From a virus (lineage: Duplodnaviria; Caudoviricetes): a stretch of 64,000 nucleotides of DNA. Of this stretch, positions 25,455 to 52,949 are shown in pieces. Location of the stretch: the IMG/VR virus record IMGVR_UViG_3300022752_000016. One strand, written 5' to 3'. The notes beneath the pieces are model-generated. The model was not told the DNA's origin. It ran no database searches and was given only the letters and a program-made list of their open reading frames with translations. The position numbers were made by a program, and so were the translations under genes. Every line of letters begins with the position of its first letter. The first letter of the stretch is position 1.

Positions 25455-26102
25455 ATGAGAGCAACAGATTTAATGGAAATGGGTACTGTAGCAGGGGCAT
25501 TTGCTACAGTAGCGAAGCCTATGGGCGAAACACAAAAACGTGGTGTAAAAGTTGCTGGGTTACAACCAGCAGAAAAAGTTATGACTGGGAAGTCAAAGAA
25601 AAAAGGCCCATATCAAAATAGTATAAATGAAGGCAAAATGAAAGATTTGTCATTAGACCTACGCAGTGATAAGGATGGTTTATCTGATATGGAATTTAAA
25701 AAGAAATATGGTAAAACCAAAGAAGAAATGCGTAAATCTCTTAAAGCGAATAAAGAGAAAAAAGTTAATGAAGCTGAATTAAGTGAAGATGATATTATAC
25801 TAGTGCCAGGGCAAGGTAGGAAATTTAAGACTGGTTTTGTCCCAAAAGGAGAAAGTAGAGTTGACCACGAAGTAGAAATGGCACGTAGTGATTTATTTCA
25901 AACAGCTAAAAATGCCCAACAAGTATATAAGTTAATAAAAAATTTAAGTGAAGATGATGGATTAGAAGGTTGGGTACAAGAGAAAATAATCAAAGCAAAC
26001 GATTATTTAAATTCAGTACGTGAATATTTAGAACATAAAACTTATATGCAAGAAATGTCAGGTGGTGTTATTGCAGCAGGTGGCGTTGGCGAGTCAAAAT
26101 GA
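25455..26102 (+). CDS. Putative internal head protein (modular, CTS-like N-terminus MRATDLME)
   Basis: N-terminus resembles other MRAxEF genes; modules separated by INE/VNE/LSE/MQE. Confidence 0.6.
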   Translation: MRATDLMEMGTVAGAFATVAKPMGETQKRGVKVAGLQPAEKVMTGKSKKKGPYQNSINEGKMKDLSLDLRSDKDGLSDMEFKKKYGKTKEEMRKSLKANKEKKVNEAELSEDDIILVPGQGRKFKTGFVPKGESRVDHEVEMARSDLFQTAKNAQQVYKLIKNLSEDDGLEGWVQEKIIKANDYLNSVREYLEHKTYMQEMSGGVIAAGGVGESK

Positions 26103-29100
26103 GTTCTATAATAAAAGGCTTAGTCAACGAGGATGAAGCTGCTGGTATGAGGTGGGAAGAGGAACTTATGGATGCTTGGGCACCCTATGCTGCCAAGCAT
26201 ATGGCTAAAGTCGTAAAGCAAGCTTTCAACAATCTTTATCCAAATGTAAAATTAAAAGTTTGGGCGGAAGCTGAAGGAGTCTCAGCAACCACTGATCCAG
26301 CCAGTGTTAATGTCAAAGCCGATGTGTTTGGACAATATGGAAAAAAAGATTGGGAATGTAATTTCTTTTGTGGACCTTTATATAATGTAGAGGATGATCG
26401 TAAATATCTTGAACTAATGGTTGAAGATGCCGCTAGCGGAAGTTATCCTGGTGTATGGAGGATAATACTTAGTGAATGGAAAAAATGGGCTAGTAGCCAA
26501 TTAAAAAAAACTGGTGCTGATGATGTTTGTTTCAGTGTAGATGAAGACATGAGCGGCGGTGCGTGGGGGAAAGTTGCTGGTGCTGTTGGTATTAAATTTA
26601 TAGCACGTGACCTAGATGAAGGTGTGGCGGAAGGCTCAGGTCCAATAAGTAAAACCAAAGCACTTAACGCACTAAGAAAAGAACTAATGAATTCATATGA
26701 GTATATGAAATGTGGGAATTTGGAAGAATTTAAACAAAGATTACAATGGCTCAGTGAAGGAATGTTGAAGAATCACATGACTGGTGGAAAAACAACAGCA
26801 ATTAACCAGAAAGAAATTGAACTATATAAGGAATATCGTAAAAAACGAGAACAGATTCAACAAGGATTTACATCGCAAGGTGTGGCGGAAGGCTTAACCC
26901 CGAGTATTATACACAAATTAGCAGACCGTAAAGGAATCAAATGGGACAACGAGCCAAGTTTTCTTAAACTTACAAAAAGATTAACAGGCAAAGAACACCT
27001 AGACGATTTGGATCAAACAGAGTTACAAAAAGTCAAACAACATTTAGAAAAGCAAGATGTGGCGGAAGCGTTAAATTATGATAGAGAACCTTTGTATCAT
27101 GCTACATTAAAAGCATTTGAGCCTAGTATCATAAAATCAGGACTACTACCAGGCGGTAATTTAAGAATGTTTGACTGGAGTGACAAAAAGTATGTATACC
27201 TTAGTAACTATCCTGACATAGCACGAGATTTTGTTGATCCTGGAGTAATAGAACCAAGTCAAGAACACGAAGACCAAATATTTAAATTAATGAAACAGGG
27301 CGGTGTTATATTTAAAATAGATCAAAATAAATTAGACAGAAAGTTATTAATGTCTGATCCACATTTTCAAAGTGACGCAGATGATGGTGCAGAAACTTAT
27401 GTATATAGTGGTATAATTTCACCAAGTGCTATAATAGGAAAAAAGTATTTTAGAATAGATGAATCAGTTGGGGTAGAAATGGTATTGGACAAGGTGAATG
27501 GTATGGCTGAAAGTAATAGATTATATAAGTATCATCAAAAATTAAGAAAACAAGCTGGATTACCTGATCCACAAGAATACTTAAGAATGCAGAAACAAAA
27601 ATTAATTGAACTAATATTACTTAATGATCCTAACCAAGAATTAAACGTATTAGAATTAGCAACAATACCTGAGTTAAAAGAAATATATCAAATGATTAAA
27701 AAAGTTGATGAAGATAATACATATCAATTTGCTGCTGAAAAGACTCCAGTAATTAGTCCATACGTAGGCGTTAAAGATAATCAATTTCGTGGTGCGATTG
27801 GTGAAGGTATAAGAAGTATGTTTGAAGAACCCAACCATAGTCCAACTGATGCAGGGTACCAAGAAGGTGGTTGGAGAGTAATGTATAAAGATGAGATGAA
27901 TGAAGATTTACGCAAATGGTTTAAAGAGAAATGGGTAAGATTTGGACCAGATGGTAAGATTCGTGGTGCATGTGCTAGGGGTGATGATAGTGAGGGCAAG
28001 CCAAAATGTTTGCCACAAAGTAAAGCACATAGCTTAGGCAAGAAGGGTCGTGCTAGTGCTGCTTCTAGAAAGCGTAGGGAAGATCCTAACCCAGAGCGTA
28101 GCGGCAAGGCAATAAATGTTGCTACAAAAAAGAAAAAATCCAATGAGGGAAGTAATATGTATGAAGCAAGTGATATCTCAGGTTTATTGGCAGCTAGTCA
28201 TTTAAATAAATCATTTATTATAACTGCTATTACAGCAGAAGGACAAAAAAAGAAATTTCGTGTAAAAGCACAGAATGAAAGAGTTGCTAAAGAAAAGTTT
28301 CTAAAGCACCATAGTATGGCAAAAATACTTGATATAAAAGAAGAAAATATGCAAGAAATGCAAGGTTCTTCAAACGTTACTGATTTAAATATTAAACAAT
28401 TAGCTACTATTAGTGATGAAGCATTAGACAAAGCATATGGTTATGGTCGTAGTACTCCAGGAAATTCATTTGGTTGGCAAGCTAATTTAATGTCAGCTGC
28501 CTATGCTAAAAAAATGATAGATGCTGGTATAACGGATATTGAAAAAATAGCGGACGCAATTCACAAAGGTTGGAATGTTACCGCACAAAAGTTTGTGCAA
28601 AATCCTGATCAGTTTGATGATACAGAAAAGTTACGTCAAGCAGGAAAGCTTGATGCCAAGTTACAACAACGTGCAAAATTAATGAAAATTAATTATTCCC
28701 AACTTGACAATGATGAACAAGAAAAAGACCGTGTAGTTGCTAGAGCATTATTAAAAGCTATAAAAGGTCAACAAAATGTGACTGAAGAAAAATGCCCACA
28801 TTGTAGTGGTCCAATGTTTGAAATGAGTTTAATGAATGAAAAGAAAGATGCATGTTATTACAAAGTTAAAAGTCGCTATAAAGTATGGCCATCAGCATAT
28901 GCCAGTGGTGCTTTAGTTAAGTGTCGTAAAAAAGGTGCTAAGAATTGGGGCACTAAATCTGAAAGTTCAATTATGAAGGGTTTACAAAGTGAAGGTCAGA
29001 TTTATAGCACTGGTGGGGGAGCAGGACAAGCGCAACGTTATTATACTCCAAAAGATAATTTAGGTGAAGAACAACTGGATGAATTAAAATGTTGGCCTGG

Positions 29101-29158
29101 TTACAAGCGTAAAAAAGGAGTTAAAGCAGGAGCCTCGGGTAGTTGTGAGAAGATATAA
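26099..29158 (+). CDS. 1019-aa modular polyprotein (putative head cargo) with ART/Tpt1-like and RyR-like modules
   Basis: Unrelated modules joined by GVAEG/DVAEA/xNE linkers; LYHAT..VYLS module; HKGW..NYSQLDNDEQEKDR module; CYYKVKSRYKVWPSAYASG module. Confidence 0.7.
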   Translation: MSSIIKGLVNEDEAAGMRWEEELMDAWAPYAAKHMAKVVKQAFNNLYPNVKLKVWAEAEGVSATTDPASVNVKADVFGQYGKKDWECNFFCGPLYNVEDDRKYLELMVEDAASGSYPGVWRIILSEWKKWASSQLKKTGADDVCFSVDEDMSGGAWGKVAGAVGIKFIARDLDEGVAEGSGPISKTKALNALRKELMNSYEYMKCGNLEEFKQRLQWLSEGMLKNHMTGGKTTAINQKEIELYKEYRKKREQIQQGFTSQGVAEGLTPSIIHKLADRKGIKWDNEPSFLKLTKRLTGKEHLDDLDQTELQKVKQHLEKQDVAEALNYDREPLYHATLKAFEPSIIKSGLLPGGNLRMFDWSDKKYVYLSNYPDIARDFVDPGVIEPSQEHEDQIFKLMKQGGVIFKIDQNKLDRKLLMSDPHFQSDADDGAETYVYSGIISPSAIIGKKYFRIDESVGVEMVLDKVNGMAESNRLYKYHQKLRKQAGLPDPQEYLRMQKQKLIELILLNDPNQELNVLELATIPELKEIYQMIKKVDEDNTYQFAAEKTPVISPYVGVKDNQFRGAIGEGIRSMFEEPNHSPTDAGYQEGGWRVMYKDEMNEDLRKWFKEKWVRFGPDGKIRGACARGDDSEGKPKCLPQSKAHSLGKKGRASAASRKRREDPNPERSGKAINVATKKKKSNEGSNMYEASDISGLLAASHLNKSFIITAITAEGQKKKFRVKAQNERVAKEKFLKHHSMAKILDIKEENMQEMQGSSNVTDLNIKQLATISDEALDKAYGYGRSTPGNSFGWQANLMSAAYAKKMIDAGITDIEKIADAIHKGWNVTAQKFVQNPDQFDDTEKLRQAGKLDAKLQQRAKLMKINYSQLDNDEQEKDRVVARALLKAIKGQQNVTEEKCPHCSGPMFEMSLMNEKKDACYYKVKSRYKVWPSAYASGALVKCRKKGAKNWGTKSESSIMKGLQSEGQIYSTGGGAGQAQRYYTPKDNLGEEQLDELKCWPGYKRKKGVKAGASGSCEKI
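26619..27071 (+). repeat. Three dispersed 18-nt direct repeats AAGGTGTGGCGGAAGGCT at module junctions
   Basis: Copies at 26619-26636 and 26877-26894 are identical; 27054-27071 matches 15/18. Confidence 0.9.
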
Positions 29159-29159
29159 T

Positions 29160-29570
29160 ATGAGAGCAAAAGAGTTTATTACCGAAACAATAGTAAAACC
29201 AGTAGATCCTATCACTAAAATTCAGCGTGATAAACCACGTCAACCACCAACACATTTAAGTAAATTAAAAAAGCCAAGTGAACCTGCTGCTAAAATAAGT
29301 TTTGCACATGAATTAGAAAAATACAAACGATTACCTGAGGGCAATGATGAAGAATTTCACACAGGTGGTAGTCCAGGAATTCCTTTCCCTACAACATATG
29401 AACAAGAATATAAACCATTTACGCAAAAAGGACAAAGAAGAATTACAGCAATGACTAATGAAGAACAAGTTGATGAAAAATGGAGTAATAAGTATAAGCG
29501 TAGTATAAATTGTAATAATCCAAAAGGGTTTAGTCAACGTGCTCACTGCCAAGGGAGGAAAAAGAAATGA
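29160..29570 (+). CDS. Putative internal head protein (CTS-like MRAKEFITE)
   Basis: ATG 29160; C-terminal KWSNKYKRSINCNNPKGFSQRAHC module. Confidence 0.65.
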   Translation: MRAKEFITETIVKPVDPITKIQRDKPRQPPTHLSKLKKPSEPAAKISFAHELEKYKRLPEGNDEEFHTGGSPGIPFPTTYEQEYKPFTQKGQRRITAMTNEEQVDEKWSNKYKRSINCNNPKGFSQRAHCQGRKKK

Positions 29571-29617
29571 TTGATTATAGTTTTTATTGGAATAGAAAAG
29601 GATATCCGAGGTAAATT

Positions 29618-30061
29618 ATGTTAACAGATTCATTAAAAGTTTTATTGGCAACAAGTTATGCTTTTGTAATTAAAGCACAAAATTTTCATTGGAACGTAGA
29701 GGGTCCAAATTTTCCTGAGTACCATAAGTTCTTGGGAGATTTATATGAAGAAGTGTACGAAAATAGTATTGACCAAACGGCTGAGTACGTTCGTGTACTT
29801 GGAGCTTATACTCCTGGCTCTATTAGTCGTTTCGCTGAATTAAGCCAAATACCAGATCAAACAAAAATTCCACGTGCAGAGTTAATGTTTGTAGAATTAC
29901 AGCAAGATAATCAAACAATTACTAATATGTGGAAAAAAGCATTTCATCTTGCAGAAGAAGCTGATGAACAAGGTATAGCAGATTTTATAGCAAGTAGAAT
30001 TGATGCACATGGAAAACATGGTTGGATGTTAAAAAGTATTTTGAAAAGGGAAAGAGCATGA
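29618..30061 (+). CDS. dps: Dps/ferritin-like protein
   Basis: QNFHWNVEGPNFPEYHKFLGDLYEE...DQTAEYVRVLG...KHGWML. Confidence 0.9.
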   Translation: MLTDSLKVLLATSYAFVIKAQNFHWNVEGPNFPEYHKFLGDLYEEVYENSIDQTAEYVRVLGAYTPGSISRFAELSQIPDQTKIPRAELMFVELQQDNQTITNMWKKAFHLAEEADEQGIADFIASRIDAHGKHGWMLKSILKRERA

Positions 30062-30477
30062 AATATTTTATGGATTATGTTAAGGCTAGTTACGAAGTCA
30101 TATTAATGGGCGAATGTAGAACTGGAATTAACTTAGACCATGAAATAGAAGCATATGTTGTACATACATATGCACGATATATGGAAAATCCTAATATACC
30201 TACTGATTCTATTGCTATACAATTTATGAATTCTTTATCATGTAATAATATTGAAAAAATTAAACGTTTAGAAAAAGTAGCAGAAGAGTCAATGTTAATA
30301 GATGCTTTAAAATTAAATAAAAAACGTTGGCCAACCAATACATATTTCTTAGAAATGGCACAACTTGCTTTAGAAACTAGAGCATTTACTACCAAACCAT
30401 ATGAATTATTTTATAATCAAGTTGCAAAACAATTACCAAATATAAGTAAAATATTAGGTAGTGTAAACAATATCTAA
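30058..30477 (+). CDS. Hypothetical protein
   Basis: ATG overlaps the dps stop. Confidence 0.7.
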   Translation: MKYFMDYVKASYEVILMGECRTGINLDHEIEAYVVHTYARYMENPNIPTDSIAIQFMNSLSCNNIEKIKRLEKVAEESMLIDALKLNKKRWPTNTYFLEMAQLALETRAFTTKPYELFYNQVAKQLPNISKILGSVNNI

Positions 30478-30500
30478 TGCAACCTATCTATCCAAAAAAA

Positions 30501-30508
30501 GATAAATA
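30501..30508 (+). promoter_or_regulatory. Candidate late promoter (GATAAATA)
   Basis: Immediately upstream of the MRATEFIFE gene. Confidence 0.5.
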
Positions 30509-30513
30509 TTTAA

Positions 30514-31209
30514 ATGAGAGCAACAGAATTTATTTTTGAAAGAAAAAGATCAAAAAGAAAATCTTTAAGAAAATACTTTTTTCCAGGCTTTTCTTATTAT
30601 GGTTTTTCAGGGTCAGGAGAAGACAGTGGAGGTGACGGAGGAGGTGAAAGCATTTATGAAACACCTGAATTAGAGTTAGCGAAACGTTTACCTAGTTTAT
30701 CCAAACATGATTATAATACAATTGATAAATTAATGCGTGAAATTAGTAAAAAACATAGTATTACTGGAAAAGCTTTACATAACTTGTTTGTAAAGAAATA
30801 TCATAAAACACCAGATGATTGGATAAAAAATAAATTAGATGAAACCAGTACCGATAATACTATCACTGATGATGTACAAAAATTTGGCCAATGGGCTAGT
30901 AAAATACTTAAATTACAGAATCCACCTGCAATTAAATTAAGTCAGGACACTGGAGAGGCACAAACTCATCATCATACAGGAAGACATGTGGATGGTGAAG
31001 ATAGTGTTTGGGTATATGTAAGAAATAGAAATTTAGTTGATATTCTTAGAACAGTATTTCATGAACTTGTACATGTAAGACAAGGTGAATTGGGTAAGAT
31101 TAAACCTGGTTCTAGTTATCCAGGTAGTCCAATTGAAGCCGAGGCCGATGTTTTAGCAGGGAAGTATATTAAAATATACGGTAAAGAAAACCCACATATT
31201 TTCCAATAA
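30514..31209 (+). CDS. Putative internal head protein with C-terminal zincin (HExxH) metallopeptidase-like module
   Basis: MRATEFIFE N-terminus; RTVFHELVHVRQ...EAEA. Confidence 0.7.
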   Translation: MRATEFIFERKRSKRKSLRKYFFPGFSYYGFSGSGEDSGGDGGGESIYETPELELAKRLPSLSKHDYNTIDKLMREISKKHSITGKALHNLFVKKYHKTPDDWIKNKLDETSTDNTITDDVQKFGQWASKILKLQNPPAIKLSQDTGEAQTHHHTGRHVDGEDSVWVYVRNRNLVDILRTVFHELVHVRQGELGKIKPGSSYPGSPIEAEADVLAGKYIKIYGKENPHIFQ

Positions 31210-31509
31210 TTAATTACTTTTTATTTCATCAAATGATTTAATAATTTCTAATTGAGAAGGATCATGTTTTTTATTATATGGAACAGGAAGTGATTGCCAT
31301 TCTTGCTCACTAATATCACAAGCTATAACCACCTGATACTTATGTCCATCACTTGTATATAGTTCAATAGTATCCAGTCCAATTACTGATTTACTTGTTT
31401 TTATTAATGCTTCACCTAAGGCTCTGAGTGCCTGTTTTTCTCCAACAATATATGCTCTACCATTTGGTTCTGCATGATTATGCATATGTAATCTTGATTT
31501 AACTTGCAT
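31210..31509 (-). CDS. Hypothetical protein
   Basis: 99-aa ORF coupled to the DnaE-like gene. Confidence 0.65.
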   Translation of the reverse strand: MQVKSRLHMHNHAEPNGRAYIVGEKQALRALGEALIKTSKSVIGLDTIELYTSDGHKYQVVIACDISEQEWQSLPVPYNKKHDPSQLEIIKSFDEIKSN

Positions 31510-33226
31510 TTAATAAATCTTTCAAACTTAGTCGTTTATGTTTCTTAACTGTAACATATTCTGTGTTGTTTTTGTAGCCTAATTTACCCACACCCCATAC
31601 TATTGGGTAATCATGTAAACTAACCGCTTTATCTAATATAACATCAATATAACGATTATTACCTGTTCCTAAGGTAACGAATGTAATATATTCTTTTGGT
31701 TTACTTTTAAATACACGATAATTGGCTACTAGTCCACAAAACTCTACCTCACCTGGTTTCCTCAACTCAGTACAAAAAGGTAAAAACTTTTTACTATGCC
31801 AATGACCCTGTGTCATTAATTCATTGATTTCATTGCCTTCGTACACACTTGTTATTGCCCCTGCCAATTTGGCCTCATGATGGTATACCCAACGGCTATA
31901 ACTACCTTGGCAATGTTTCAAAACAGCACGCCAAAACTTTTCAGGATTATGTGCTTTTTGATACGCAATTGCCCATATCAAACGTCCTAAATTAATCGCA
32001 TGTGCCCTACATAATCCAAAATTACTTAATTCTGTTAATGCATAAAAAACTTCTTCTTTGTTTTCATGGTTACCTATCAAATCCATAAACTCAAATATTT
32101 TTTCTTCATTACGTTTAGCAAAGGCACGACGCCACATATCTGCTTCATATTGGTTACAATCTAATAGTTTACTAATTAACATGATTGCATCATCTTCAAA
32201 CACAATAGTATTATCAAATGTGTCTTTGCTCCAATCACGGAAAAAACTGGCTTTGCGACGACCTTGTGTGGCAACTGGTCTAATTAATGCTGTAGCTAAT
32301 ACACAATCTTCACGTTTGGTTGGTTTTATAGCCCTAAATAATCTACGCATTGCAGGACTCTCTGCCTGTGTGACTCCCAAAACGTTACCGCTACGTAATA
32401 ACTCAGCAGTTTTTTCATCATATTCAGGATAGTCCAACAAGTTTTTTGTAGGGTCTATTTCATAGAGTTGAGATAGTCCTCGATTGGATAATATGTCAAT
32501 TTTAAAATGTTCTAAATCTTCAATTTCATATTTGTCTAATAGTATTTGGTTTTCTGCATTGATTAAACTTTTCGGGACAGCACGATCAAATATTAATATA
32601 CCACCACAATGTTTACTGATACAACGTTTTTTACCTAATAATTTATTAACCAAGCGTTTTGCTTCATCAGCAAATTCTGGTACAACTTTGTCTAAATCTA
32701 TATTTCTAGGTAATCTACCCTTCGCACCATATCGTTTTGCTGCCTCACGTATGGCACTTTTCTCTTTATATGTAACATAATTGCTTACCCGTGCTGATTG
32801 ACCTTTCCAATGATTAAAGATACGATTCATCACTGTTTCTTGTTGATAATGCGGGAAGTCTAAATCAATGTCTGGTAAATCATCACGTTTTGGGTTCATA
32901 AAACGTGCTAATGGTATTTTTTCTTTAATTGGATCAACATCACTAATACCAAGTAACCAACATAATAAACTACTTCCTGCACTACCACGAGTCATATGTG
33001 GTATATCTTTAGTTAATTCTAATATTTCTACTACACGTAAGAAGTGTTTTGCGAAACCTAATTTTGCTATGAGTTCTAGTTCTTCTTCTAACCTATTTTC
33101 GTATTCTATGTCGTTTGGTAAATTTCTTGTAAATTTCTTTATTAATATTTCTAGTTCTTTATATCTACTTTCCATATTTGTGCCTATTGTATGTGCCATA
33201 AGTTTTTTATTTATTTGGTAAAACAA
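31499..33226 (-). CDS. dnaE: DNA polymerase III alpha-like (DnaE) lacking the PHP domain; true start may be 33199 or 33175
   Basis: RGSAGSSLLCWLLG, PDIDLDF, HCGGILI, KIDIL, FGLCRAHA, C-terminal OB-like region. Confidence 0.85.
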   Translation of the reverse strand: MFYQINKKLMAHTIGTNMESRYKELEILIKKFTRNLPNDIEYENRLEEELELIAKLGFAKHFLRVVEILELTKDIPHMTRGSAGSSLLCWLLGISDVDPIKEKIPLARFMNPKRDDLPDIDLDFPHYQQETVMNRIFNHWKGQSARVSNYVTYKEKSAIREAAKRYGAKGRLPRNIDLDKVVPEFADEAKRLVNKLLGKKRCISKHCGGILIFDRAVPKSLINAENQILLDKYEIEDLEHFKIDILSNRGLSQLYEIDPTKNLLDYPEYDEKTAELLRSGNVLGVTQAESPAMRRLFRAIKPTKREDCVLATALIRPVATQGRRKASFFRDWSKDTFDNTIVFEDDAIMLISKLLDCNQYEADMWRRAFAKRNEEKIFEFMDLIGNHENKEEVFYALTELSNFGLCRAHAINLGRLIWAIAYQKAHNPEKFWRAVLKHCQGSYSRWVYHHEAKLAGAITSVYEGNEINELMTQGHWHSKKFLPFCTELRKPGEVEFCGLVANYRVFKSKPKEYITFVTLGTGNNRYIDVILDKAVSLHDYPIVWGVGKLGYKNNTEYVTVKKHKRLSLKDLLNAS

Positions 33227-33230
33227 CGAA

Positions 33231-33268
33231 CCAAAAGATTTGTAAAAACTACAGAAACAAAGTATAAT
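33231..33268 (+). promoter_or_regulatory. Sigma70-like promoter with upstream CCAAAA element
   Basis: CCAAAA-N3-TTGTAA-N17-TATAAT. Confidence 0.65.
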
Positions 33269-33292
33269 TACATAATACTATAAGGATATTTT

Positions 33293-33550
33293 ATGTCAAG
33301 AACTTTTACTGGTGAAGCAAAAAATAAATTAACCCAACTTATTAATGAAGGTTGTGCAGTGATGCATGAAATTGAAACATTGCAAGGTGGGCTTAGTGAT
33401 ACCATTAAAGCTGTAGCAGAAGAATTAGAAGTAAAACCAAGTGTGCTTAAAAAAGCTATTCGTATCGCTCATAAAGCTAATTTGGGTGCTGCAAATAAAG
33501 AACACGAAGAACTCAACGAAATTTTGGAAACGGTTGGAAAAACACTTTAA
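33293..33550 (+). CDS. dsDNA-binding protein (T4 DsbA/GapR-like)
   Basis: 85-aa helical protein; IKAVAEELEVKPSVLKKAIRIAHK. Confidence 0.6.
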   Translation: MSRTFTGEAKNKLTQLINEGCAVMHEIETLQGGLSDTIKAVAEELEVKPSVLKKAIRIAHKANLGAANKEHEELNEILETVGKTL

Positions 33551-34203: not shown

Positions 34204-34493
34204 ACAACGATATAATTTTAAACATATATTCTTGGGTAAAACAGGATTGGAAATCTAATCCTTTAAGATTTTTTATAGAATTATTGGCTTGGACTATAAG
34301 TATTGGTTGTGCCTTGATTATGGCACTAACTGTACCTAACCCTCCTCTTATGATATTATATCCATTGTGGATATTAGGATGTATACTGTATGCTTGGGCA
34401 TCATACTCAAGAAAATCATTTGGTATGTTGGGAAATTATTTGTTACTTACTTCAGTTGATATTATTGGATTAGCAAGGTTATTAATACAATGA
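34200..34493 (+). CDS. Small membrane protein
   Basis: Three hydrophobic segments. Confidence 0.7.
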   Translation: MNNDIILNIYSWVKQDWKSNPLRFFIELLAWTISIGCALIMALTVPNPPLMILYPLWILGCILYAWASYSRKSFGMLGNYLLLTSVDIIGLARLLIQ

Positions 34494-37198: not shown

Positions 37199-37206
37199 AT
37201 TGATAG

Positions 37207-43167: not shown

Positions 43168-43848
43168 ATGAGTTATAATAAAACTAAAACAGACCCTGAA
43201 TTGGGTAAAAGAGTAAATGAGTACTTAGTAAAAATGGGCGTACAAACTCCCGCAGCGAAATCAAGACACGATAGAAAAACTCAAATTGAATTAATAGAGC
43301 AAAATTTTACTGCTATTATGAACATCTTAGGATTGGATCTACATGATGATAGTTTAGCTGAAACTCCAAAACGTGTAGCAAAAATGTATGTAAATGAAAT
43401 ATTTTGGGGTTTAGACTATGAAGCTTTTCCTAAATGTACCACAGTAAATAATAAAATGAAGTATAATGAAATGGTGGTAGAAAGAAATGTATCAGTTCAG
43501 AGCAATTGTGAGCATCATTTTGTGGTTATTGACGGTCTTGCTACTGTGGCATATGTACCTAAGGATAGAGTATTGGGTCTTAGCAAAATCAACAGAATTG
43601 TGGAGTATTTTAGTAAACGCCCTCAAATTCAAGAACGTTTAACAGAACAAATTTTTCATACATTACAATATATTCTTGATACAGAAGATGTTGCTGTTAT
43701 GATTGATGCACAACATTACTGTGTAAAAAGCAGAGGTGTTGAGGATACAGGTAGTAGTACTGTAACAAGTCGTTTGGGTGGTGGATTTAAAAATGATGTT
43801 GCTGTGCGTAATGAATTTTACAGTATTGCAAGGAGTTCATCTAAATGA
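43168..43848 (+). CDS. folE: GTP cyclohydrolase I
   Basis: ETPKRVAKM, SNCEHH, GLSKINR, RPQIQERLT, HYCVKSRG. Confidence 0.96.
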   Translation: MSYNKTKTDPELGKRVNEYLVKMGVQTPAAKSRHDRKTQIELIEQNFTAIMNILGLDLHDDSLAETPKRVAKMYVNEIFWGLDYEAFPKCTTVNNKMKYNEMVVERNVSVQSNCEHHFVVIDGLATVAYVPKDRVLGLSKINRIVEYFSKRPQIQERLTEQIFHTLQYILDTEDVAVMIDAQHYCVKSRGVEDTGSSTVTSRLGGGFKNDVAVRNEFYSIARSSSK

Positions 43849-44012: not shown

Positions 44013-44235
44013 AAAACCTGAATTGCAAACTGCAACAGACATTATTTTTCAAGCTATATATGAAACTCATAGTAAATACAACGATGGTTTTACCCAGTTT
44101 GAAATTAAAAAAGATTTATATAAGCTTAAGTGGATAATGGATGATTATTTTAAAAAAGCAGATAAGTTTCAAGGGGAAGATGAATGGGTTGAAAAGATAT
44201 TACAACAAAGAGTATGGGAGTTACTTAAAAAATGA
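44002..44235 (+). CDS. Hypothetical protein
   Basis: ATG 44002. Confidence 0.6.
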   Translation: MGFKKPELQTATDIIFQAIYETHSKYNDGFTQFEIKKDLYKLKWIMDDYFKKADKFQGEDEWVEKILQQRVWELLKK

Positions 44236-45071: not shown

Positions 45072-45072
45072 T

Positions 45073-45747
45073 ATGTGGGAAAATATAAAATTACCATTGG
45101 TAATACTTTCTAGTCCAAGATCTGGTTCTACTGTTTTACTAGACACTATTCGTAATTATTTAAATGACAATAATGTAAATTTTACAGACATAGGCAGTGA
45201 ACCAATTACACATGAAGATCGGTCTTTTGAACGTTATGAAAAATTAAACCACAATTTAACAACAAATAATTTCATTTGTAAACTTCATGTTTTTCAACTT
45301 AAAACAATTTATCCAATGTTTTTTTTTGATAATATACTTCAAGGAAAATACTTTTTAATAAGGATTAGGAGAAAAAATATTGCAGAACAATTAGTAAGTC
45401 TTTACATAAGTCATGTGTATGGAGAAAAAGAAATTTTCCAAAATTCAAAAGAATCAAATAAAAAATACATTGAAAATAAAAAAATTCCAATTGATAAATT
45501 TATTATGGAACAAGTAATAATACGTGGCATGCACCATATACATCTTTTAGAAAATTTTAATTGTAAATTTGATTTAGATTTATGGTACGAGGATATAATA
45601 TTCAACTCAAAGAAGTATTACAAACCAAAACCTCCTAGTAATTATAAAGAATTAGTTGATAGAGTTAGTAACATTGTACAAGATAAAACTTTTGACTCGT
45701 TAATAAAAACTATAAAAGTTCATCCATTGACCCTTAAATCGACATAA
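45073..45747 (+). CDS. Sulfotransferase (Stf0-like)
   Basis: 5'-PSB loop ILSSPRSGST; RRKNIAEQLVS; WYED. Confidence 0.75.
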   Translation: MWENIKLPLVILSSPRSGSTVLLDTIRNYLNDNNVNFTDIGSEPITHEDRSFERYEKLNHNLTTNNFICKLHVFQLKTIYPMFFFDNILQGKYFLIRIRRKNIAEQLVSLYISHVYGEKEIFQNSKESNKKYIENKKIPIDKFIMEQVIIRGMHHIHLLENFNCKFDLDLWYEDIIFNSKKYYKPKPPSNYKELVDRVSNIVQDKTFDSLIKTIKVHPLTLKST

Positions 45748-45750
45748 AAA

Positions 45751-46425
45751 ATGTTTACCAATTTAAAATTACCTATTGTTATACTTTCTAGTCCAAGATC
45801 TGGTTCTAATGTTCTTTATGATACTATTTGTAATTATTTAAGTGATAATAAAATACACTATGTTGGTACAGGAGTTGAACCTTTATTATTTGATAATTAT
45901 AATGATACAAAAAGTTTAAAAAAGTTTGATGAAATAATAGCAACGAACAATTTTGTAACAAAAATTCATGCTATACATTTAAAAAAGTTATACCCTAATT
46001 ATTTTGTACAAAATATTTTGCAAAAAAAATATACCATTGTTAGGATAAGACGAAGAAATATAATTGAACAATTAATTAGTCTATACATTTGCACACTTAT
46101 TGATATTATCAATAAAGGAGATGAACTTATTTGGTCAAACACTAAAAAAAGTAATAGATTGATTGAAGATAAAAAAATTCCCATTTATGAAGATGTTTTA
46201 AAAAAGGTTATAAATTATGGAATATTAGCAATAACATACTGTGAAAATTTTAATTACAATTTTGATTTAGACTTATATTATGAAGATTTATCGTTTAATT
46301 CAAAAAAACACTTTAAACCAACAAAAAAACCTAGTAACTATGAAGAATTGCACACAATTTTTAGCGATCATTTAGCAAAAATTGATTTTAAACAGAACAA
46401 CGATATATTAAATACCCTTTTATGA
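45751..46425 (+). CDS. Sulfotransferase (Stf0-like), tandem paralog
   Basis: ILSSPRSGSN; RRRNIIEQLIS; YYED. Confidence 0.75.
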   Translation: MFTNLKLPIVILSSPRSGSNVLYDTICNYLSDNKIHYVGTGVEPLLFDNYNDTKSLKKFDEIIATNNFVTKIHAIHLKKLYPNYFVQNILQKKYTIVRIRRRNIIEQLISLYICTLIDIINKGDELIWSNTKKSNRLIEDKKIPIYEDVLKKVINYGILAITYCENFNYNFDLDLYYEDLSFNSKKHFKPTKKPSNYEELHTIFSDHLAKIDFKQNNDILNTLL

Positions 46426-46622
46426 TGAATTCAAAAGATAATAGTATTATACTACGAATGTCGGAACTAATGAAACCTATTGATAAACAAATAATGATGA
46501 CGAATGATGATAAAGAATTACTTATGCTGGCGTGTGCTATGTTACAACGTGTAACAGAAATATTTGATAACACATTAACAGTAACTGGAAGAAAAAAAAT
46601 GTTTAGCGATTTGATTAAATAG
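46422..46622 (+). CDS. Hypothetical protein
   Basis: 66-aa coupled ORF. Confidence 0.65.
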   Translation: MMNSKDNSIILRMSELMKPIDKQIMMTNDDKELLMLACAMLQRVTEIFDNTLTVTGRKKMFSDLIK

Positions 46623-46701
46623 TATTAGTGGTCTAAGGCATTCATCCCACTTTAAATATTCTGCATGTCATCAAACTTACTCAGCTTAAAGGAGGCAAGA
46701 G

Positions 46702-47172
46702 GTGGCAAAATTTATTTCAACAAAAACATATAACCAAATCGGTCCAGTGGCATATCGTCAATGGCGTGCGGATAGTCATTGTAATTTGATACATGGATAT
46801 GCATTGAGTTTTCATTTTGAATTTGAAAGTGAAACGCTTGATGCTAGAAACTGGGTAGTAGATTTTGGTAGTCTTAAACCTTTAAAAGGATTATTGGAAG
46901 AATGGTTCGATCATACGCTACTAGTAGCAGAAGATGATCCTATGAAAAATGAATTATCTAGATTGGGAGAATTGGGACTAGCAAAAATTACAATGGTAGA
47001 ACGAACAGGGTGTGAAGGTATTGCTGATTGGTTATACGAATACATTAATACTTGTTGGTTAAAAGATTATGGGTATGATGAAAGAGTGTGGTGTTGTAAA
47101 GTGGAAGTAAGAGAGACTGATGCTAACATGGCAATGCGTGTTGGAAGTAGGTCAGATAATGAATTCGTTTAA
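46702..47172 (+). CDS. queD: 6-carboxy-5,6,7,8-tetrahydropterin synthase
   Basis: SHCNLIHGY, WVVDFGSLK, FDHTLL, VEVRETDAN; GTG start with AAAGGAGG RBS. Confidence 0.85.
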   Translation: MAKFISTKTYNQIGPVAYRQWRADSHCNLIHGYALSFHFEFESETLDARNWVVDFGSLKPLKGLLEEWFDHTLLVAEDDPMKNELSRLGELGLAKITMVERTGCEGIADWLYEYINTCWLKDYGYDERVWCCKVEVRETDANMAMRVGSRSDNEFV

Positions 47173-47183
47173 AAAGGAAACAA

Positions 47184-47555
47184 ATGAATAAAGTTTTATC
47201 AGACCAAAAGCAGTTTATGACAGCTTGTGGTCAAACAGTAGATACATATAATTTAGAGCAATTCAATTTGTATAAATCATTAATTGGAGAAGAAGTAGGT
47301 GAACTCATTCATGCTTGTCAACTAAATGACAGAGTAGAACAATTAGATGCACTTATTGATATTTTAGTTGTTACGGCAGGAGCAATACATAGTTTAGGGG
47401 TTGATGGTGAAGCTGCTTGGAACGAAGTTATGCGAACAAATTTTGCAAAAGTTGACCCAGTTACTGGAAAAGTACGCCGTCGTGAAGATGGTAAAATTCT
47501 TAAACCTGATGGTTGGACACCACCACAACTACAATCATTTGTAAAAAATATTTAA
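47184..47555 (+). CDS. MazG-like/all-alpha NTP pyrophosphohydrolase
   Basis: LIGEEVGEL...LDALIDILVV...NFAK...REDGKILKP. Confidence 0.85.
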   Translation: MNKVLSDQKQFMTACGQTVDTYNLEQFNLYKSLIGEEVGELIHACQLNDRVEQLDALIDILVVTAGAIHSLGVDGEAAWNEVMRTNFAKVDPVTGKVRRREDGKILKPDGWTPPQLQSFVKNI

Positions 47556-47557
47556 TT

Positions 47558-48397
47558 ATGTCACAGTTAAAAGTAAGCGAACTATTCTATAGTATCCAAG
47601 GTGAGGGCCGATATATGGGTGTACCAAGTGTGTTCCTTCGTGTGTTTGGATGTAACTTTACATGTGGTGGATTTGGTATGCCACGAGGACAAACTAGTAA
47701 TCAACGTAATGAAATTAAGGTAGAATTATTTAAAGATTATAAAGAACTACCATTGGTATCTACTGGGTGTGATAGTTATGCAAGTTGGGATCCTAGGTTT
47801 AAACATCTTAGCCCAGTTCTTGATACAAATACAATCGTAACTAGTATACTAGATTTATTACCTACTGGGTATTGGCAAGGAGAACATTTAGTTATTACAG
47901 GTGGCGAACCATTGTTAGGTTGGCAACGTAATTATCCTGATTTACTAGGACATGATTTTATGGAACATTTAAGTGATATTACGTTTGAAACTAACGGTAC
48001 GCAAAAATTAACAAATGTTTTTTATGATTATCTTAAGGATTGGTCAAAAAGTAAAAACGGTGAAGTAACATTTAGTGTAAGTGCAAAGTTACCAAACAGC
48101 GGTGAAAAGTGGGATGAAGCAATCAATCCAGATATAGTATGTCAATATCAAGAAGTTGGCTATACATATTTAAAATTTGTAGTAGCAACTGAAGATGATA
48201 TTGAAGATGCCGAAAAAGCAGACAGCGAATTTAGAAATGCAGGATTTGTTGGGCCCACTTATATTATGCCTGTTGGTGGTGTTGATAGTGTATATAATTT
48301 AAACGCAAAGAATGTAGCATTAGCAGCTATGAAACGAGGTTGGCGTTATAGTGATAGACTGCAAGTACTACTATTTAAAAACGAATGGGGAACATAA
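47558..48397 (+). CDS. queE: 7-carboxy-7-deazaguanine synthase (radical SAM)
   Basis: ELFYSIQGEG, FLRVFGCNFTC...GCDS, VITGGEPLL, FETNGT, RLQV. Confidence 0.88.
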   Translation: MSQLKVSELFYSIQGEGRYMGVPSVFLRVFGCNFTCGGFGMPRGQTSNQRNEIKVELFKDYKELPLVSTGCDSYASWDPRFKHLSPVLDTNTIVTSILDLLPTGYWQGEHLVITGGEPLLGWQRNYPDLLGHDFMEHLSDITFETNGTQKLTNVFYDYLKDWSKSKNGEVTFSVSAKLPNSGEKWDEAINPDIVCQYQEVGYTYLKFVVATEDDIEDAEKADSEFRNAGFVGPTYIMPVGGVDSVYNLNAKNVALAAMKRGWRYSDRLQVLLFKNEWGT

Positions 48398-48579
48398 TGA
48401 AAACATATATAATTACTAGAAATCAATACGAAAAAATTAAAGAGGTGTTTGAAATGTACGATACAATTGACTATGTAAAAATACATGAAGAAAGTACGTC
48501 TGGTATAGGACCAACAACAACATTAGAATTTAATCCAAGCTTTGTTAAAGTTGATATTACTGATGTTGAAAGTTGGTAA
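48397..48579 (+). CDS. Hypothetical protein
   Basis: ATG overlaps the queE stop. Confidence 0.6.
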   Translation: MKTYIITRNQYEKIKEVFEMYDTIDYVKIHEESTSGIGPTTTLEFNPSFVKVDITDVESW

Positions 48580-48767
48580 TGTTAGTAGGAACTGACTATA
48601 AATTTTTATTATTTCCCAAACGCTGTAGTTTAACAAACAAGTTATTATGGCTTTGTTATGCATATGAGCATATTCATTTATACACAGGACTTGGGGAACC
48701 TTTATTTGAATACAAATATTATGATAAGAAGCATTATTTGGTAAATAAGTTAAAGGGTGTATTGTGA
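48579..48767 (+). CDS. Hypothetical protein
   Basis: Coupled ORF. Confidence 0.55.
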   Translation: MLVGTDYKFLLFPKRCSLTNKLLWLCYAYEHIHLYTGLGEPLFEYKYYDKKHYLVNKLKGVL

Positions 48768-50092
48768 GAACTTACGACAAACGGATTGGTTTCATTGTTA
48801 GTAGTCAAACACTAATCCCACATGGTGGTATAGGACAATTTGCAAAAAGTTTTTGTGAGTTAATGAACGAACATAATATTAAAGTTGATATTATTACAGA
48901 TAAAGAACCCAATGATAAAGACTTTGTAAAATCACTTAATACTAAAGTTATAACGCCGTCAGTGTCATTACCTTATACGAATCATAGTAATATTTTTATG
49001 TATGGAGATACATATTGCTATGAGCGTATGGCTAACTTTCGTAATGCTATTATACAGGCATTAGAAAATAATTTATATGACGCATTCATATGCAACACAT
49101 ATGAAAGTGTTCAAGTTGCAAGTACAATTGGTTTAGAGGATGTAATTAAAATTATAGCCTACACTCATTTGGAAAGTCAAATATTTAAGGATACTAAAAA
49201 TCCCTTTTTAGCATCTACCAATCAAATGATGCGTATGCAACTTAAGTTGAATGGTATATACATAGGAACACAAAGTAAGTTCAATCAGTTAACCATTGGA
49301 GATAGTGCTTATCATTTACCTATTCCTATTACAGAAAAGAAATTACTTAATAAGTTTGATAATGCTAGGGAGGGTGTTTTGTTTATTGGACGCTGGGAAG
49401 AAGGCAAGAATCCTGAACTGTTTATTGAATTGATAGAGCAAACAAAACTCCCAGCAAAAGTAATGACAAGCCCAAATGGTGTTAAAAAGTTTGAAGATAG
49501 GTTAAAAAGGATTAATGCAAAGTATGAAATACGTGCTAGCATTATTGGACAGGAGAAAGTAGATTTTATTACAAGTGCTAGAATAGCTTTTAATCCTAGT
49601 ATTGTTGAAAGTTATGGTATGGCTTTTTACGAACAAATGATACAAATGCCTACTGTAGTATTAGAAAATCAAAGATGGACAAATAATTTTGATTCAAACT
49701 ATTTCTATACGTGTAATAAAAAGAACATGGCAGAAATAGTCATGGGGTTATACAAGAATGTGCCAACATCTGATGTTTGGTATAAAAATGGTATTATTGA
49801 AAAGTATCGTAGGATAGAAGATCAGGTGTTTCATAAATGGAACAATTGCTTTAGTGATTTTAAATGTAGGGAATCAAACTCAACCACAGCTAAAATATGT
49901 AATGAAACTACAGTTAAACTATCAGATTATATTAGTAGCCTAAAAAGGAATTTAATTTGTATAGACGATATCCGTAGCGTATTAACTAATAAACATAAGT
50001 TTCGTATAATTTACACAGACAATGATACATATCTAACGAAAGACCCTAGTTTTGAACCAACAGATACAGAGGATTTATTTGAAGGATTATGA
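48764..50092 (+). CDS. Glycosyltransferase (GT-B/GT4-like)
   Basis: HGGIGQF, LFIGRWEEGKNP, FNPSIVESYGMAFYE. Confidence 0.8.
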   Translation: MRTYDKRIGFIVSSQTLIPHGGIGQFAKSFCELMNEHNIKVDIITDKEPNDKDFVKSLNTKVITPSVSLPYTNHSNIFMYGDTYCYERMANFRNAIIQALENNLYDAFICNTYESVQVASTIGLEDVIKIIAYTHLESQIFKDTKNPFLASTNQMMRMQLKLNGIYIGTQSKFNQLTIGDSAYHLPIPITEKKLLNKFDNAREGVLFIGRWEEGKNPELFIELIEQTKLPAKVMTSPNGVKKFEDRLKRINAKYEIRASIIGQEKVDFITSARIAFNPSIVESYGMAFYEQMIQMPTVVLENQRWTNNFDSNYFYTCNKKNMAEIVMGLYKNVPTSDVWYKNGIIEKYRRIEDQVFHKWNNCFSDFKCRESNSTTAKICNETTVKLSDYISSLKRNLICIDDIRSVLTNKHKFRIIYTDNDTYLTKDPSFEPTDTEDLFEGL

Positions 50093-50913
50093 AGAAAATA
50101 CTAATAACAGGAAATAGTGGTTATATTGGATCGCATCTTACCAAGCTACTAAGCAAAGATTATGAAGTACATGGATTAGATAAAAAAGATTTGATTGTAC
50201 CAGTAAAAGAATTTTACAAATTAGATATTAACCGAAAATTTGTATTGCCTATAGAATTTGATTGTGTAGTGCATTTAGCAGCATTGGTTAATGTGGGCGA
50301 AAGTGAAACCAATTCAATAAATTATTACATCACCAATGTAAATGGTACAATGAATGTATTAGCAAACATTAAAACTAAAAACTTTATATTTTCTAGTACA
50401 GGAGCAGCGGAATTTTGTAAAAGTGCATATGGTGTAACAAAACGATCAGCAGAATATATTATAAAAGAATATTGCACACTTCATTCACAAACTCCATATA
50501 CTATTTTTAGATTTTATAATGTCATCGGTAATGATGGAATTAACCCAACAAATCCAGACGGATTATTTTATAATTTAATTAAAGCTAAAGATACAGGTAC
50601 TTTTACTATATATGGCAAAGATTATGAAACACCTGATGGCACTTGTTTACGTGACTATGTACATGTTAATGAAATTTGTCATGCAATTAAAACCGCAATA
50701 GAAAAACCAAGTAATAGTATTGAATGTCTTGGACATGGTGTAGGATACAGCGTTAAAGAAATTGTAAATAAATTTCAAATTGTAAATCAGTGTGATTTTG
50801 ATATTAAATATGGACTAAGACGATTAGGTGATTTACCTGTCAGCGTATTAGAAGATGTGTCGCCATATATGGAAAATTTATATACTATTGATGAATTACT
50901 TAAAGTTACATAA
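50089..50913 (+). CDS. NAD-dependent epimerase/dehydratase (GalE-like)
   Basis: ITGNSGYIGSH, HLAA, YGVTK, RFYNV, DGTCLRDYVHV. Confidence 0.9.
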   Translation: MKKILITGNSGYIGSHLTKLLSKDYEVHGLDKKDLIVPVKEFYKLDINRKFVLPIEFDCVVHLAALVNVGESETNSINYYITNVNGTMNVLANIKTKNFIFSSTGAAEFCKSAYGVTKRSAEYIIKEYCTLHSQTPYTIFRFYNVIGNDGINPTNPDGLFYNLIKAKDTGTFTIYGKDYETPDGTCLRDYVHVNEICHAIKTAIEKPSNSIECLGHGVGYSVKEIVNKFQIVNQCDFDIKYGLRRLGDLPVSVLEDVSPYMENLYTIDELLKVT

Positions 50914-51766
50914 CAAATATTTTGCCAACACTGCTTGCTAATACATCATTAAACATCATTTCCATATCATTAGCTAACACATCACTAGCATTTTTCCTAT
51001 CTGCTTCATCACGGTATTCAGGTTTGATACTCATGTATTTCGTTGGATTACCAAACACTTTACGTCCATATCCTAAATTAGTTGGAAATGGATTTAAAGT
51101 AATTTTTCCTGTTCCTAAATATTGAGCAAATAACTCATACATAAATTCGTAGGGGCGTCTGATTTGACCACTACGACTACTACGCTGTGTTCCTATAGCG
51201 TTAAACAATGCATTGTATTCTTGTGTTAATGTCCATTTTATTGCTGGCATATTATATGGTTTACCTAATTTACTATAATACTTATCAAGTAAATTATTTA
51301 CGGTTCCAAAAAAGTGTTTTTCAGCTTCAGCCCACTCACTCCATCCTTGACTTCTACGAACTCCTGCTTGTATAGCATGACCAAAACGATGTGCCATTAA
51401 CCATGGTGTTAACATTACTTTAGCGTCTCCACGATTGCCGACGTACACAACAGTAATGGCATTTTCATGCCCATCGAGTATTTGATCTGCTTGTTCTTTA
51501 TTAAAAGTATTTCTTATTTCTCCTGGATGCATTGGGCCATGTTCGCTATATTTACCAAAGCCAGATACATTAGTAAAGAACAACCTAAAATCATATGGAG
51601 TTCTTTCAAAAAACTTTTGCGTTTTTAATTCACTTTTAGGGTGGGGTATTAATCTTTTATCTACGCCACGAAATGGTCCAGGTTTTGTAAAGTCACCAAA
51701 CGTTTGGTACTTAGACAATGCCATTTCATCAACTTCGCTCTCCCTAAGAAACTCAATCGCTCGCAT
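50906..51766 (-). CDS. Putative internal head protein (CTS-like MRAIEFLRE), HRxGH motif
   Basis: 286-aa ORF; VDEMAL linker; WLMAHRFGHAI. Confidence 0.65.
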   Translation of the reverse strand: MRAIEFLRESEVDEMALSKYQTFGDFTKPGPFRGVDKRLIPHPKSELKTQKFFERTPYDFRLFFTNVSGFGKYSEHGPMHPGEIRNTFNKEQADQILDGHENAITVVYVGNRGDAKVMLTPWLMAHRFGHAIQAGVRRSQGWSEWAEAEKHFFGTVNNLLDKYYSKLGKPYNMPAIKWTLTQEYNALFNAIGTQRSSRSGQIRRPYEFMYELFAQYLGTGKITLNPFPTNLGYGRKVFGNPTKYMSIKPEYRDEADRKNASDVLANDMEMMFNDVLASSVGKIFVM

Positions 51767-51767
51767 A

Positions 51768-52949
51768 TTAGTGAAACATTAAGAACTGATTTTGTACATC
51801 TAATCTTGGCGCACCTAAGTCCCCATGCCCTGCAGGGAATACAACAACATTCCATTTTGGCTTAGGACCTTCAGGAATCTTTACCATTTGATCATATGTA
51901 ATAATGCTATCTTTATCAATATTATATTTACTTGCTAATTTATTTTTAAATTGATCCCATGCTTCGTTACTAGCAATAATTGTTTTACCATCTTCATCCT
52001 TAATATACTTACCTTTTTGATCTGTTTTAAATAAACCCTTAAAGAATTCTTTTGGTAATGTTACAGCATCTTTAACAAACTTGCCTTTATCTCTAGCAAA
52101 TTGCACTGTTTTTACTTCTTTACTCTTTGCTCCTGGGCTAAACTGCTTAACAACATTTGGTGGGCTGTTTGGATCCGTAACTATTTCGCCCATTTTACTA
52201 TAGAAATAAAATCTTACATCAGGATTCATTCTAGCAACATCCATCATTAAATCATAATAATCTTTACTAAAGAAATCCCCTGCATCATGTATACGAACTA
52301 ATAACTTTATACCAGCTTTGTCTACTCTAGCTTTAGCTTGTTTAACTTCACGGTCAAACATTTTCATATAATCTATTGGATGATTTAATAAGAAGTTTAA
52401 TGCTCTAGCAGCACTCATACTACTGCCTGGGAACATTACATAACCACCTTTTCTAGCATAACAATATAATTGACATTCACCAGCACCTGGGCATGTTTCT
52501 ACTTCAACGAAAACTGGCTCACCTGCTGAACTTGCTTCTTCATCAACTACAATACCACTTAATGCTGGTAATGTTAAATCATAAGTAATAGCACCCTCTT
52601 TTTTACTTTTAGCCATTTTAGCATTTGTGCCTAAAATACTATTTGGAGGTGTTGTTATTTGGTTAGCTAAATCTACTAAATCCCATTCTGTATTCTCATT
52701 GTCCTTTGTGATTGCTTTAATATTACTTGCGTGTATAATAGGCTTAAAGCGATCAGATTTAGTTTTTTCACCACTTTTAATGCGTGTCAAGTATGCTTGT
52801 AAGTCTTTCTTGTCATATTGTTTTTGAGGAATATCAACTTTGAGTGCTTCATCGACACCCTGTTGTTCAATATTTAATGGTGTGACAGGAAACCCGCCCA
52901 ATGTACTTACGGACATTTTATCTTCAAATAAAATTTCATTAATTTTCAT
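51768..52949 (-). CDS. GP88-like Cys-cluster protein with CTS-like N-terminus
   Basis: MKINEILFE...QQGVDEA; TCPGAGECQLYCYARKG; VRIHDAGDF; FYFYSK. Confidence 0.7.
   Translation of the reverse strand: MKINEILFEDKMSVSTLGGFPVTPLNIEQQGVDEALKVDIPQKQYDKKDLQAYLTRIKSGEKTKSDRFKPIIHASNIKAITKDNENTEWDLVDLANQITTPPNSILGTNAKMAKSKKEGAITYDLTLPALSGIVVDEEASSAGEPVFVEVETCPGAGECQLYCYARKGGYVMFPGSSMSAARALNFLLNHPIDYMKMFDREVKQAKARVDKAGIKLLVRIHDAGDFFSKDYYDLMMDVARMNPDVRFYFYSKMGEIVTDPNSPPNVVKQFSPGAKSKEVKTVQFARDKGKFVKDAVTLPKEFFKGLFKTDQKGKYIKDEDGKTIIASNEAWDQFKNKLASKYNIDKDSIITYDQMVKIPEGPKPKWNVVVFPAGHGDLGAPRLDVQNQFLMFH

Follow-up and report, generated by a model that had tools for sequence, protein, structure and literature searches.

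The window analysed here is a 64,000-nt stretch of viral DNA (IMG/VR record IMGVR_UViG_3300022752_000016), AT-rich with about 30-35% GC, whose source is an uncultured giant freshwater phage; no close relative was found among 50,697 cultured-phage records. Five of its genes encode products that begin with a leader of eight or nine residues, and a neighbouring gene encodes a polyprotein of 1019 residues whose modules meet at joints ending in Glu. Here we describe the leaders, the proteins that carry them and the joints, together with a reading in which the leaders would act as capsid-targeting propeptides of the kind known from phage T4. Coordinates are collected in Table 1.

Leader-bearing genes of the window

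A model that saw only the letters of the window and its open reading frames (ORFs) had singled out five N-termini (the original prediction), and all five were found where it placed them (25455+, 29160+, 30514+, 51766- and 52949-). Four are leaders of nine residues with the pattern M-(R/K)-x-x-E-Φ-Φ-x-E, and the fifth, at 25455, is a variant of eight residues. The scan that had been proposed was run with the expression M[RK]xx[ED][FILMV]xxE at every ATG, GTG and TTG of both strands; it matched the four 9-mers and one internal Met at 43456. Four leader matches compare with 0.026 expected among 87 non-overlapping ORFs (binomial P 1.7e-8), and the rate at internal Met residues of the window was 1/410. 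The five genes are unrelated, as had been claimed: the leader-trimmed proteins share no similarity (best pairwise BLASTP E 0.45). All five are basic, with a mature isoelectric point (pI) of 8.6-9.8.

The 215-residue protein (25455) has no match in Pfam or PHROG, and the atlas search returned viral hypothetical proteins only. Its homologues start with MRFSQIVSE, MKINQIIINE or MKISSLFE, the homology setting in at the residue right after the Glu. Gene 29160-29570 (+) encodes 136 residues with a mature pI of 9.8 and has an internal joint QVDE·K at 29466-29477 (a raised dot marks the boundary after the Glu); its C-terminal module, WS(N/E)KYKRSINC..., is preceded by VDE·K here and by a leader in a related locus (L085). 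The product of gene 30514-31209 (+), 231 residues long, has a further leader-like site of degenerate sequence, ESIYE· (30646-30660), as well as an HExxH motif (31060-31074), for which neither a family match nor Pfam support was obtained. Homologues of this protein that lack its basic, Gly-containing insert start with MKTHDFVNE·AAATELAKRLP, which aligns with ESIYE·TPELELAKRLP. Gene 51768-52949 (-) encodes a 393-residue protein of the GP88 family (PF17338 at 2.3e-29), the sole Pfam family among the five leader proteins, with homologues that start with MRYYELLE, MKIKHLME, MKITELYE or MKIKDLILKE.

The 286-residue protein of gene 50906-51766 (-) has a second site, EVDE·MAL, at 51725-51736. The protein has 642 homologues. 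In 93 of the best 120 the strict leader forms the N-terminus, and most of the remaining ones begin with variants of it. The MAL anchor was located in about 105 of those best 120, and in all of these [VILM]-[DE]-E stands directly before it (one begins at MAL); the interval from leader to MAL comprises 0-200 residues of varying modules (GNAT, deaminase, ParB-like, ADP-ribosyltransferase-like). In the AlphaFold2 (AF2) model of the window protein, residues 1-14, which include the leader, are disordered. A Foldseek search of the fold against the PDB gave nothing at E <= 0.001. The best VIA-align match was at Z 4.0, and leads to Pro-Pro endopeptidase and to lethal-factor-like zincins (Z 3.1-3.7, atlas below 0.9) were considered and dropped as too weak. 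The family has an invariant HRxGH (H126 R127 x G129 H130) at the place of the zincin HExxH, and the protein may be a pseudo-peptidase.

Related IMG/VR contigs were reached through homologues of the 286-residue protein, and IMG/VR was also scanned with back-translated MRAxEFIxE, which gave at least 144 matches in at least 120 stretches. Among the 144 matches listed, 139 open ORFs of at least 60 residues, with a median of 7 open codons upstream, and their leader-trimmed products fall into at least 29 unrelated BLAST clusters. Proteins of about 125 residues that end in a basic tail, KPFKGYK(R)K, make up the largest cluster, and GH19, LysM, GNAT or ParB_N domains are present in others. Within the related loci (1,712 distinct ORF products, 432,120 residues) the motif is N-terminal in 182 products and truly internal in none, the 11 apparent internal cases all lying on a Met that adjoins a mis-called start and being artefacts of ORF calling. 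The five relatives that are 98-100% complete have 4-10 strict matches per genome, and reversed controls have 0. Aligned over 417 proteins with loosely defined starts, the leader is conserved (in %) as M100 R82 A70 x E92 F77 I56 x E76; conservation stops at residue 9, positions 10-12 are unconstrained, and residue 9 closes the first Φ-x-E in 314 of the 417. Its codons show synonymous variation at every conserved position (GAA/GAG 12:10, TTT/TTC, four Ala codons, AGA/CGA), so that the peptide and not the DNA is conserved. Judged by its residues and codons, the leader is a general, strictly N-terminal tag selected as a peptide.

According to the original prediction, each leader gene sits in a unit behind GATAAATA. 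This holds for three units in the window, genes 29160 and 51766 being downstream genes of units headed in this way, and the copy at 25425-25432 would suit a late transcription unit. The box does not stand out statistically, however: the window has 9 copies of GATAAATA against 7.2 +/- 2.5 by chance, and in the related loci ATAAATA lies upstream of 12% of leader genes and 14% of other ORFs. A late promoter was for this reason rejected as a defining feature. In 14 of 23 cases with an ATAAATA box upstream of a leader gene, the distance from the end of the box to the ATG is 4-7 nt (window examples 30501-30514 and 16818-16830); a Shine-Dalgarno sequence would not fit into this space, and late mRNAs that are nearly leaderless are implied. 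The conserved start could on this ground be an mRNA element, either an initiation enhancer for such mRNAs or the operator of a translational repressor, with no role for the peptide. We hold this to be highly improbable, because only the said 12% of leader genes have the box, synonymous codons vary freely while the amino acids are fixed, and conservation ends exactly at the Glu. A further ORF of 181 residues (17449-17994 (+)), with a GATAAATA box upstream at 16818, starts with MKEKLLLE·G and may represent another leader variant.

Table 1. Positions of the leaders, modules, joints and upstream boxes in the window.
Feature	Position	Strand	Remark
Candidate cargo gene 1 (215 aa, mature pI 9.2)	25455..26102	+	
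Leader MRATDLME (8 residues) of the 215-aa basic protein	25455..25478	+	sequence
Leader MRAKEFITE of the 136-aa basic protein	29160..29186	+	motif scan
Leader MRATEFIFE of the 231-aa protein	30514..30540	+	motif scan
Leader MRAIEFLRE of the 286-aa protein	51740..51766	-	motif scan
Leader MKINEILFE of the 393-aa GP88-family protein	52923..52949	-	motif scan
1019-aa multi-module polyprotein	26099..29158	+	
Joint 1, GVAE·G, residues 175-178	26617..26639	+	GC-rich DNA repeat
Joint 2, GVAE·G, residues 261-264	26875..26897	+	same repeat as joint 1
Joint 3, DVAE·A, residues 320-323	27052..27074	+	joint 1 repeat at 87% identity
Predicted ADP-ribosyltransferase-fold module, residues 324-456	27068..27466	+	AF2 and Foldseek
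Basic Cys-containing module DLRKWFKEKWVRFG...	27905..28369	+	after MNE· (Glu602)
DUF5872-like zinc-ribbon module	28790..28990	+	after VTEE·
GATAAATA, T4-late-promoter-like box	25425..25432	+	22 nt before 25455, just after terminator 25387-25402
GATAAATA	30501..30508	+	5 nt before ATG of 30514, near-leaderless arrangement
GATAAATA	53004..53011	-	54 nt upstream of 52949

The 1019-residue polyprotein and its joints

The ORF of the 1019-residue protein is translationally coupled to gene 25455-26102 through an ATGA overlap and has a variant leader of its own, MSSIIKGLVNE (26099-26131), similar to the N-terminus MSRILKGLTE of a polyprotein in locus L011. It comprises about 10 modules, which recur in other contexts in the relatives. 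Pfam searches with single modules gave nothing usable, and no peptidase domain was detected in the ORF.

The module at residues 324-456 is confidently predicted to have an ADP-ribosyltransferase (ART) fold of the Tpt1/KptA/DarT kind. Its AF2 model has a predicted local distance difference test score (pLDDT) of 93 and a predicted template modelling score (pTM) of 0.86; Foldseek matched it to Tpt1/KptA (E 2e-5, probability 1.0) and to DarT1 (4e-3), the atlas leads were Arr-ms, PARP and ART-PolyVal at 0.93, and the weak Pfam matches of family members all fall within the ART superfamily. Elsewhere the module is preceded by GVAE·, by MAE· or by a leader, depending on the phage. It also recurs in many other phages as a stand-alone, leader-tagged protein of about 130 residues. 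The DLRKWFKEKWVRFG... module begins at the same residue in three settings: behind MNE· in the 1019-residue protein, behind the leader FITE· in L084 and behind LEE· in L085. The DUF5872-like module (PF19197, weak at 0.0023; matches to phrog_727 and phrog_3477) is found again after PVAE· in L097 and in the cyanophage S-RIM2. The Synechococcus phage S-RIM2 protein in question (KX349251.1 99785-100849) is a hypothetical protein of 354 residues encoded between the small terminase and virion genes; it consists of small basic Cys-containing modules of the kind described here (DUF5872-like and others) with x-x-E·G joints and has no MRA leader.

The original prediction described internal (V/L/I/M)-x-E linkers between the modules. 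The Glu stood up, the joints ending in GVAE, DVAE, VDE·M or VDE·K; the rule of a hydrophobic residue at position -3 did not. Boundaries were tested with modules that follow the leader's Glu9 in one protein and are internal in another (45 unique contexts), and the residue aligned to Glu9 is Glu in 44% of them against a background of 6.7%. Leaders that lack Glu9 (MRASEFVNKQQGVAE·D) are followed by GVAE within the next few residues. The constant feature of the aligned joints is the terminal Glu.

A repeat search showed that the three joints of Table 1 are encoded by a near-identical GC-rich 15-23-mer, and modules are exchanged between phages exactly at the joints. Both observations would fit an explanation in which leader and joints are mainly recombination or fusion scars of cassette shuffling and the proteins function uncut. 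The synonymous variation of the leader codons speaks for a conserved peptide instead, and many joints (VDE·M, MNE·D, VNE·A, ESE·D) have the Glu in common without a DNA repeat. Shuffling and cleavage are moreover compatible with each other, and a gp21-type protease is encoded by all complete relatives (see below). We regard scars alone as an improbable explanation.

Head protease and genomic setting

A gp21 homologue, which the original prediction had proposed to look for, was sought in the five leader-bearing relatives of 98-100% completeness (340-525 kb) and in a sixth, partial one (G001, 123 kb). One Peptidase_S77 gene (PF03420) scored over the Pfam cut-off in each of the five and in G001 (E 1.8e-29 in the latter). 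The protease lies in a head module of T4 order: portal, acidic core protein, protease, gp22-like coiled-coil scaffold and gp23-like capsid protein. In the relative G007 it matches the structure of T4 gp21 (5JBL) at E 3.6e-15 and keeps the DHP and SRG motifs, which we take to contain the catalytic His and Ser. Its closest cultured relative is from Sinorhizobium phage Phosso (60% identity); identities are 41-48% to T4-like cyanophages and about 35% to T-even-like phages. Phosso itself has just two plausible leader-like starts, on unannotated genes. The G007 capsid protein starts with MSQELLE·S; ahead of its gp23-like core lie three more L/I-x-E sites, which makes four in the propeptide. The acidic core protein starts with MNKFEQLIE, so that leader-like N-termini are present on head proteins themselves.

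The T4 record (NC_000866.4) was searched for ATG followed by four codons and GAR NTN NTN NNN GAR, with a reversed control. There were 6 matches against 0 in the control (ipII and ipIII with MKTYQEFIAE, gp24 with MAKINELLRE, alt with MELITELFDE, gp61.1 with MKTFKEFIKE, and one other), and ipII, ipIII, gp24 and alt are known gp21-processed head proteins. In the annotations of the record, gp24 is 'cleaved by gp21' and alt is in the capsid and enters with the DNA. Gene 61.1 (18966-19130 (-)) is an unstudied ORF of 54 codons whose start is a near-perfect capsid-targeting sequence; its product may be an unrecognised small internal protein.

Some GH19 wall hydrolases of the relatives (L057:2992-3609 (+); G003 10797-11426 (-)) have a segment resembling a twin-arginine translocation (Tat) signal, RRGFLGA...AQA, right after the leader. 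Such hydrolases could be ejection proteins that act on the membrane, or else lysins that are exported. Together with the ClpA-like AAA+ protein encoded at 19315-21573 of the window, the segment is what would speak for the tag as another N-terminal signal for sorting or turnover, namely the n-region of an export signal or a tag for a ClpA-like unfoldase or a host protease. In most leader proteins, however, no hydrophobic segment follows the tag. The sequence of the tag agrees almost residue for residue with the T4 capsid-targeting sequence and with the gp24 and Alt propeptides, and related N-termini stand on the core and capsid proteins of the head. Phage SPN3US is known to have processed ejection proteins with a membrane segment at the N-terminus (PMC5694885), so that the Tat-like leader proteins fit capsid targeting too. 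We consider a sorting or turnover signal very improbable.

Comparison of the window (25400-31300) with locus L184 of G007 (64000-75500) places the leader genes in a hypervariable island of conserved synteny; its flanks, a glycosyltransferase-like gene and a Dps-like gene, are kept, and the intervening cargo is different. Other genes of the window include a 1515-residue collagen-like repeat protein with tail-fibre PHROGs at 300-4847 (+), in a stretch that, unlike the remaining window, has 46% GC and a strong AT skew. A fragment-sized DnaE-type polymerase at 31499-33226 (-) has NTPase and finger domains only. The ClpA-like protein (19315-21573 (+)) is full-length, and there is no ClpP in the window.

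Interpretation and comparison with known systems

The reading we prefer, with a probability of roughly 0.8, is that the leader proteins have T4-type capsid-targeting propeptides at their N-termini and are cargo that is packaged in the head, trimmed by the head protease and delivered together with the DNA. By analogy with T4, the five window proteins and hundreds alike in related phages are probably head-packaged cargo. The first eight or nine residues would attach the newly made protein to the prohead's scaffolding core during head assembly, and the gp21-type serine protease would cut after the leader's terminal Glu. Multi-module proteins would in addition be cut by it at every joint, behind the closing Glu (GVAE·G, VDE·M, MNE·D and others). 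The products set free, mature proteins and peptides that are for the most part basic, would be kept in the head with the DNA, and at least some of them may enter the host with it and act there, as do IPI-III and Alt of T4. Candidate activities are those of the ART-fold module and the HExxH protein in the window, and of the GH19 wall hydrolases, GNAT acetyltransferases and ParB-like domains in the relatives. The general addressing system of the original prediction came out as expected in every part open to a test on sequence: the gp21 homologue, the T4-like motif, the general tag and the Glu boundaries.

Several points weigh against capsid targeting and cleavage. Across the relatives, position -3 of the joints is hydrophobic in 22% against a background of 23%, without enrichment for L, I or V; the specificity of the protease may differ from the L/I-x-E of T4, or some joints may stay uncut. 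Since GVAE(G) is conserved as DNA, part of the boundary-Glu signal could come from recombination joints and not from cleavage sites. Of more than 8000 homologues of the protease, none of the best 120 was traced to the window's own contig, and tblastn of two cargo proteins against the 50,697 cultured-phage records gave no match. The Tat-like segment on some GH19 proteins could mean export instead. Complex prediction of the G007 protease with the first 40 residues of one leader protein scored 0.00, which is evidence neither way. Packaging, cleavage and ejection are, finally, inferred by analogy with T4.

A wider reading takes leader and Glu joint as a plug-and-play packaging grammar, by which modules are loaded, cut free and delivered and in which the DNA-conserved joint doubles as a recombination site; this is tentative, and we give it somewhat less than an even chance. 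Were it true, the tag would be a handle by which hundreds of injected takeover and anti-defence proteins could be read from metagenomes of a large clade of uncultured giant phages. Phage proteins injected with the DNA act before phage gene expression; they are the first line against host defences and are very hard to recognise from sequence. Through a 9-residue tag in common with T4 they could be picked out in giant phages that have not been cultured; there the tag stands on 29 or more unrelated families, the majority without a known function. The T4 capsid-addressing code would then have been kept across a very deep split, with proteases about 35% identical. The joints suggest that whole strings of modules may ride on one tag if protease sites separate them. 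A practical interest lies in the loading of foreign proteins into phage heads.

The closest parallel is the T4 capsid-targeting sequence MKTYQEFIAE, which brings internal proteins, and foreign proteins fused to it, into the scaffolding core and is cut off by gp21 (PMC8442874, PMC3012670, PMC9958956). T4 tags and window leaders have in common the E-Φ-Φ-x-E core ending in a Glu that is scissile in T4, and the gp24 propeptide MAKINELLRE is close to the window leader MKINEILFE. In both cases the tag stands on otherwise unrelated, mostly basic proteins, among them an ADP-ribosyltransferase (a predicted fold here, Alt in T4); the T4 internal proteins are basic like the five mature window proteins. 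The relatives of the window also have the gp21-family protease inside a head module of T4 order. The tag described here differs in its length of nine or eight residues instead of 10, with three residues before the core and not four, and in its consensus MRAxEFIxE. It also heads long multi-module polyproteins with internal Glu joints, and the candidate cargo is far more diverse (at least 29 families) and shuffled between phages. The phages concerned are uncultured, of 340-525 kb and from freshwater; their protease is about 35% identical to the T4-like ones.

In phages phiKZ (gp175) and SPN3US (gp245), head proteins are processed by a Glu-specific gp21-like protease (PMC5694885, PMC10052503). 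As proposed here, many inner-head and ejection proteins are matured, there are paralogues with conserved N-termini, and the propeptides have been proposed as capsid-targeting sequences. Those propeptides, however, are mostly longer than 100 residues and are cut at S/A/G-x-E, whereas the leaders here have 8-9 residues, and neither a short universal tag nor module arrays with repeated linkers have been described there. The Dar (defence against restriction) proteins of phage P1 are likewise anti-defence proteins that are packaged in the head, processed and delivered with the DNA (PMC5512222, PMC12810830); they are loaded through an ordered hierarchy of protein-protein contacts and not by a common short leader, and they have no sequence similarity to the proteins described here.

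A description of such a leader and joint system was not found in the literature; the paper on polyvalent proteins (PMC5512222) and a jumbo-phage survey describe neither a shared tag nor head-protease joints. Polyvalent proteins (Iyer et al. 2017; PMC5512222) are multi-domain proteins predicted to be packaged in the head, injected and proteolytically processed. They have 2-15 unrelated effector-type domains per polypeptide, a range that includes the 1019-residue protein and the relatives' proteins with GNAT, ParB_N, GH19 and LysM domains. Their repertoire of ART, GNAT, ParB-like, zincin and lysozyme domains resembles that of the candidate cargo (ART fold, GNAT, ParB_N, GH19 with LysM, HExxH). 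The processing of polyvalent proteins is ascribed to in-built MPTase or other peptidase domains, of which none was detected in the 1019-residue protein, whereas the units described here are bounded by sites suited to a head protease and headed by a tag of the T4 type.

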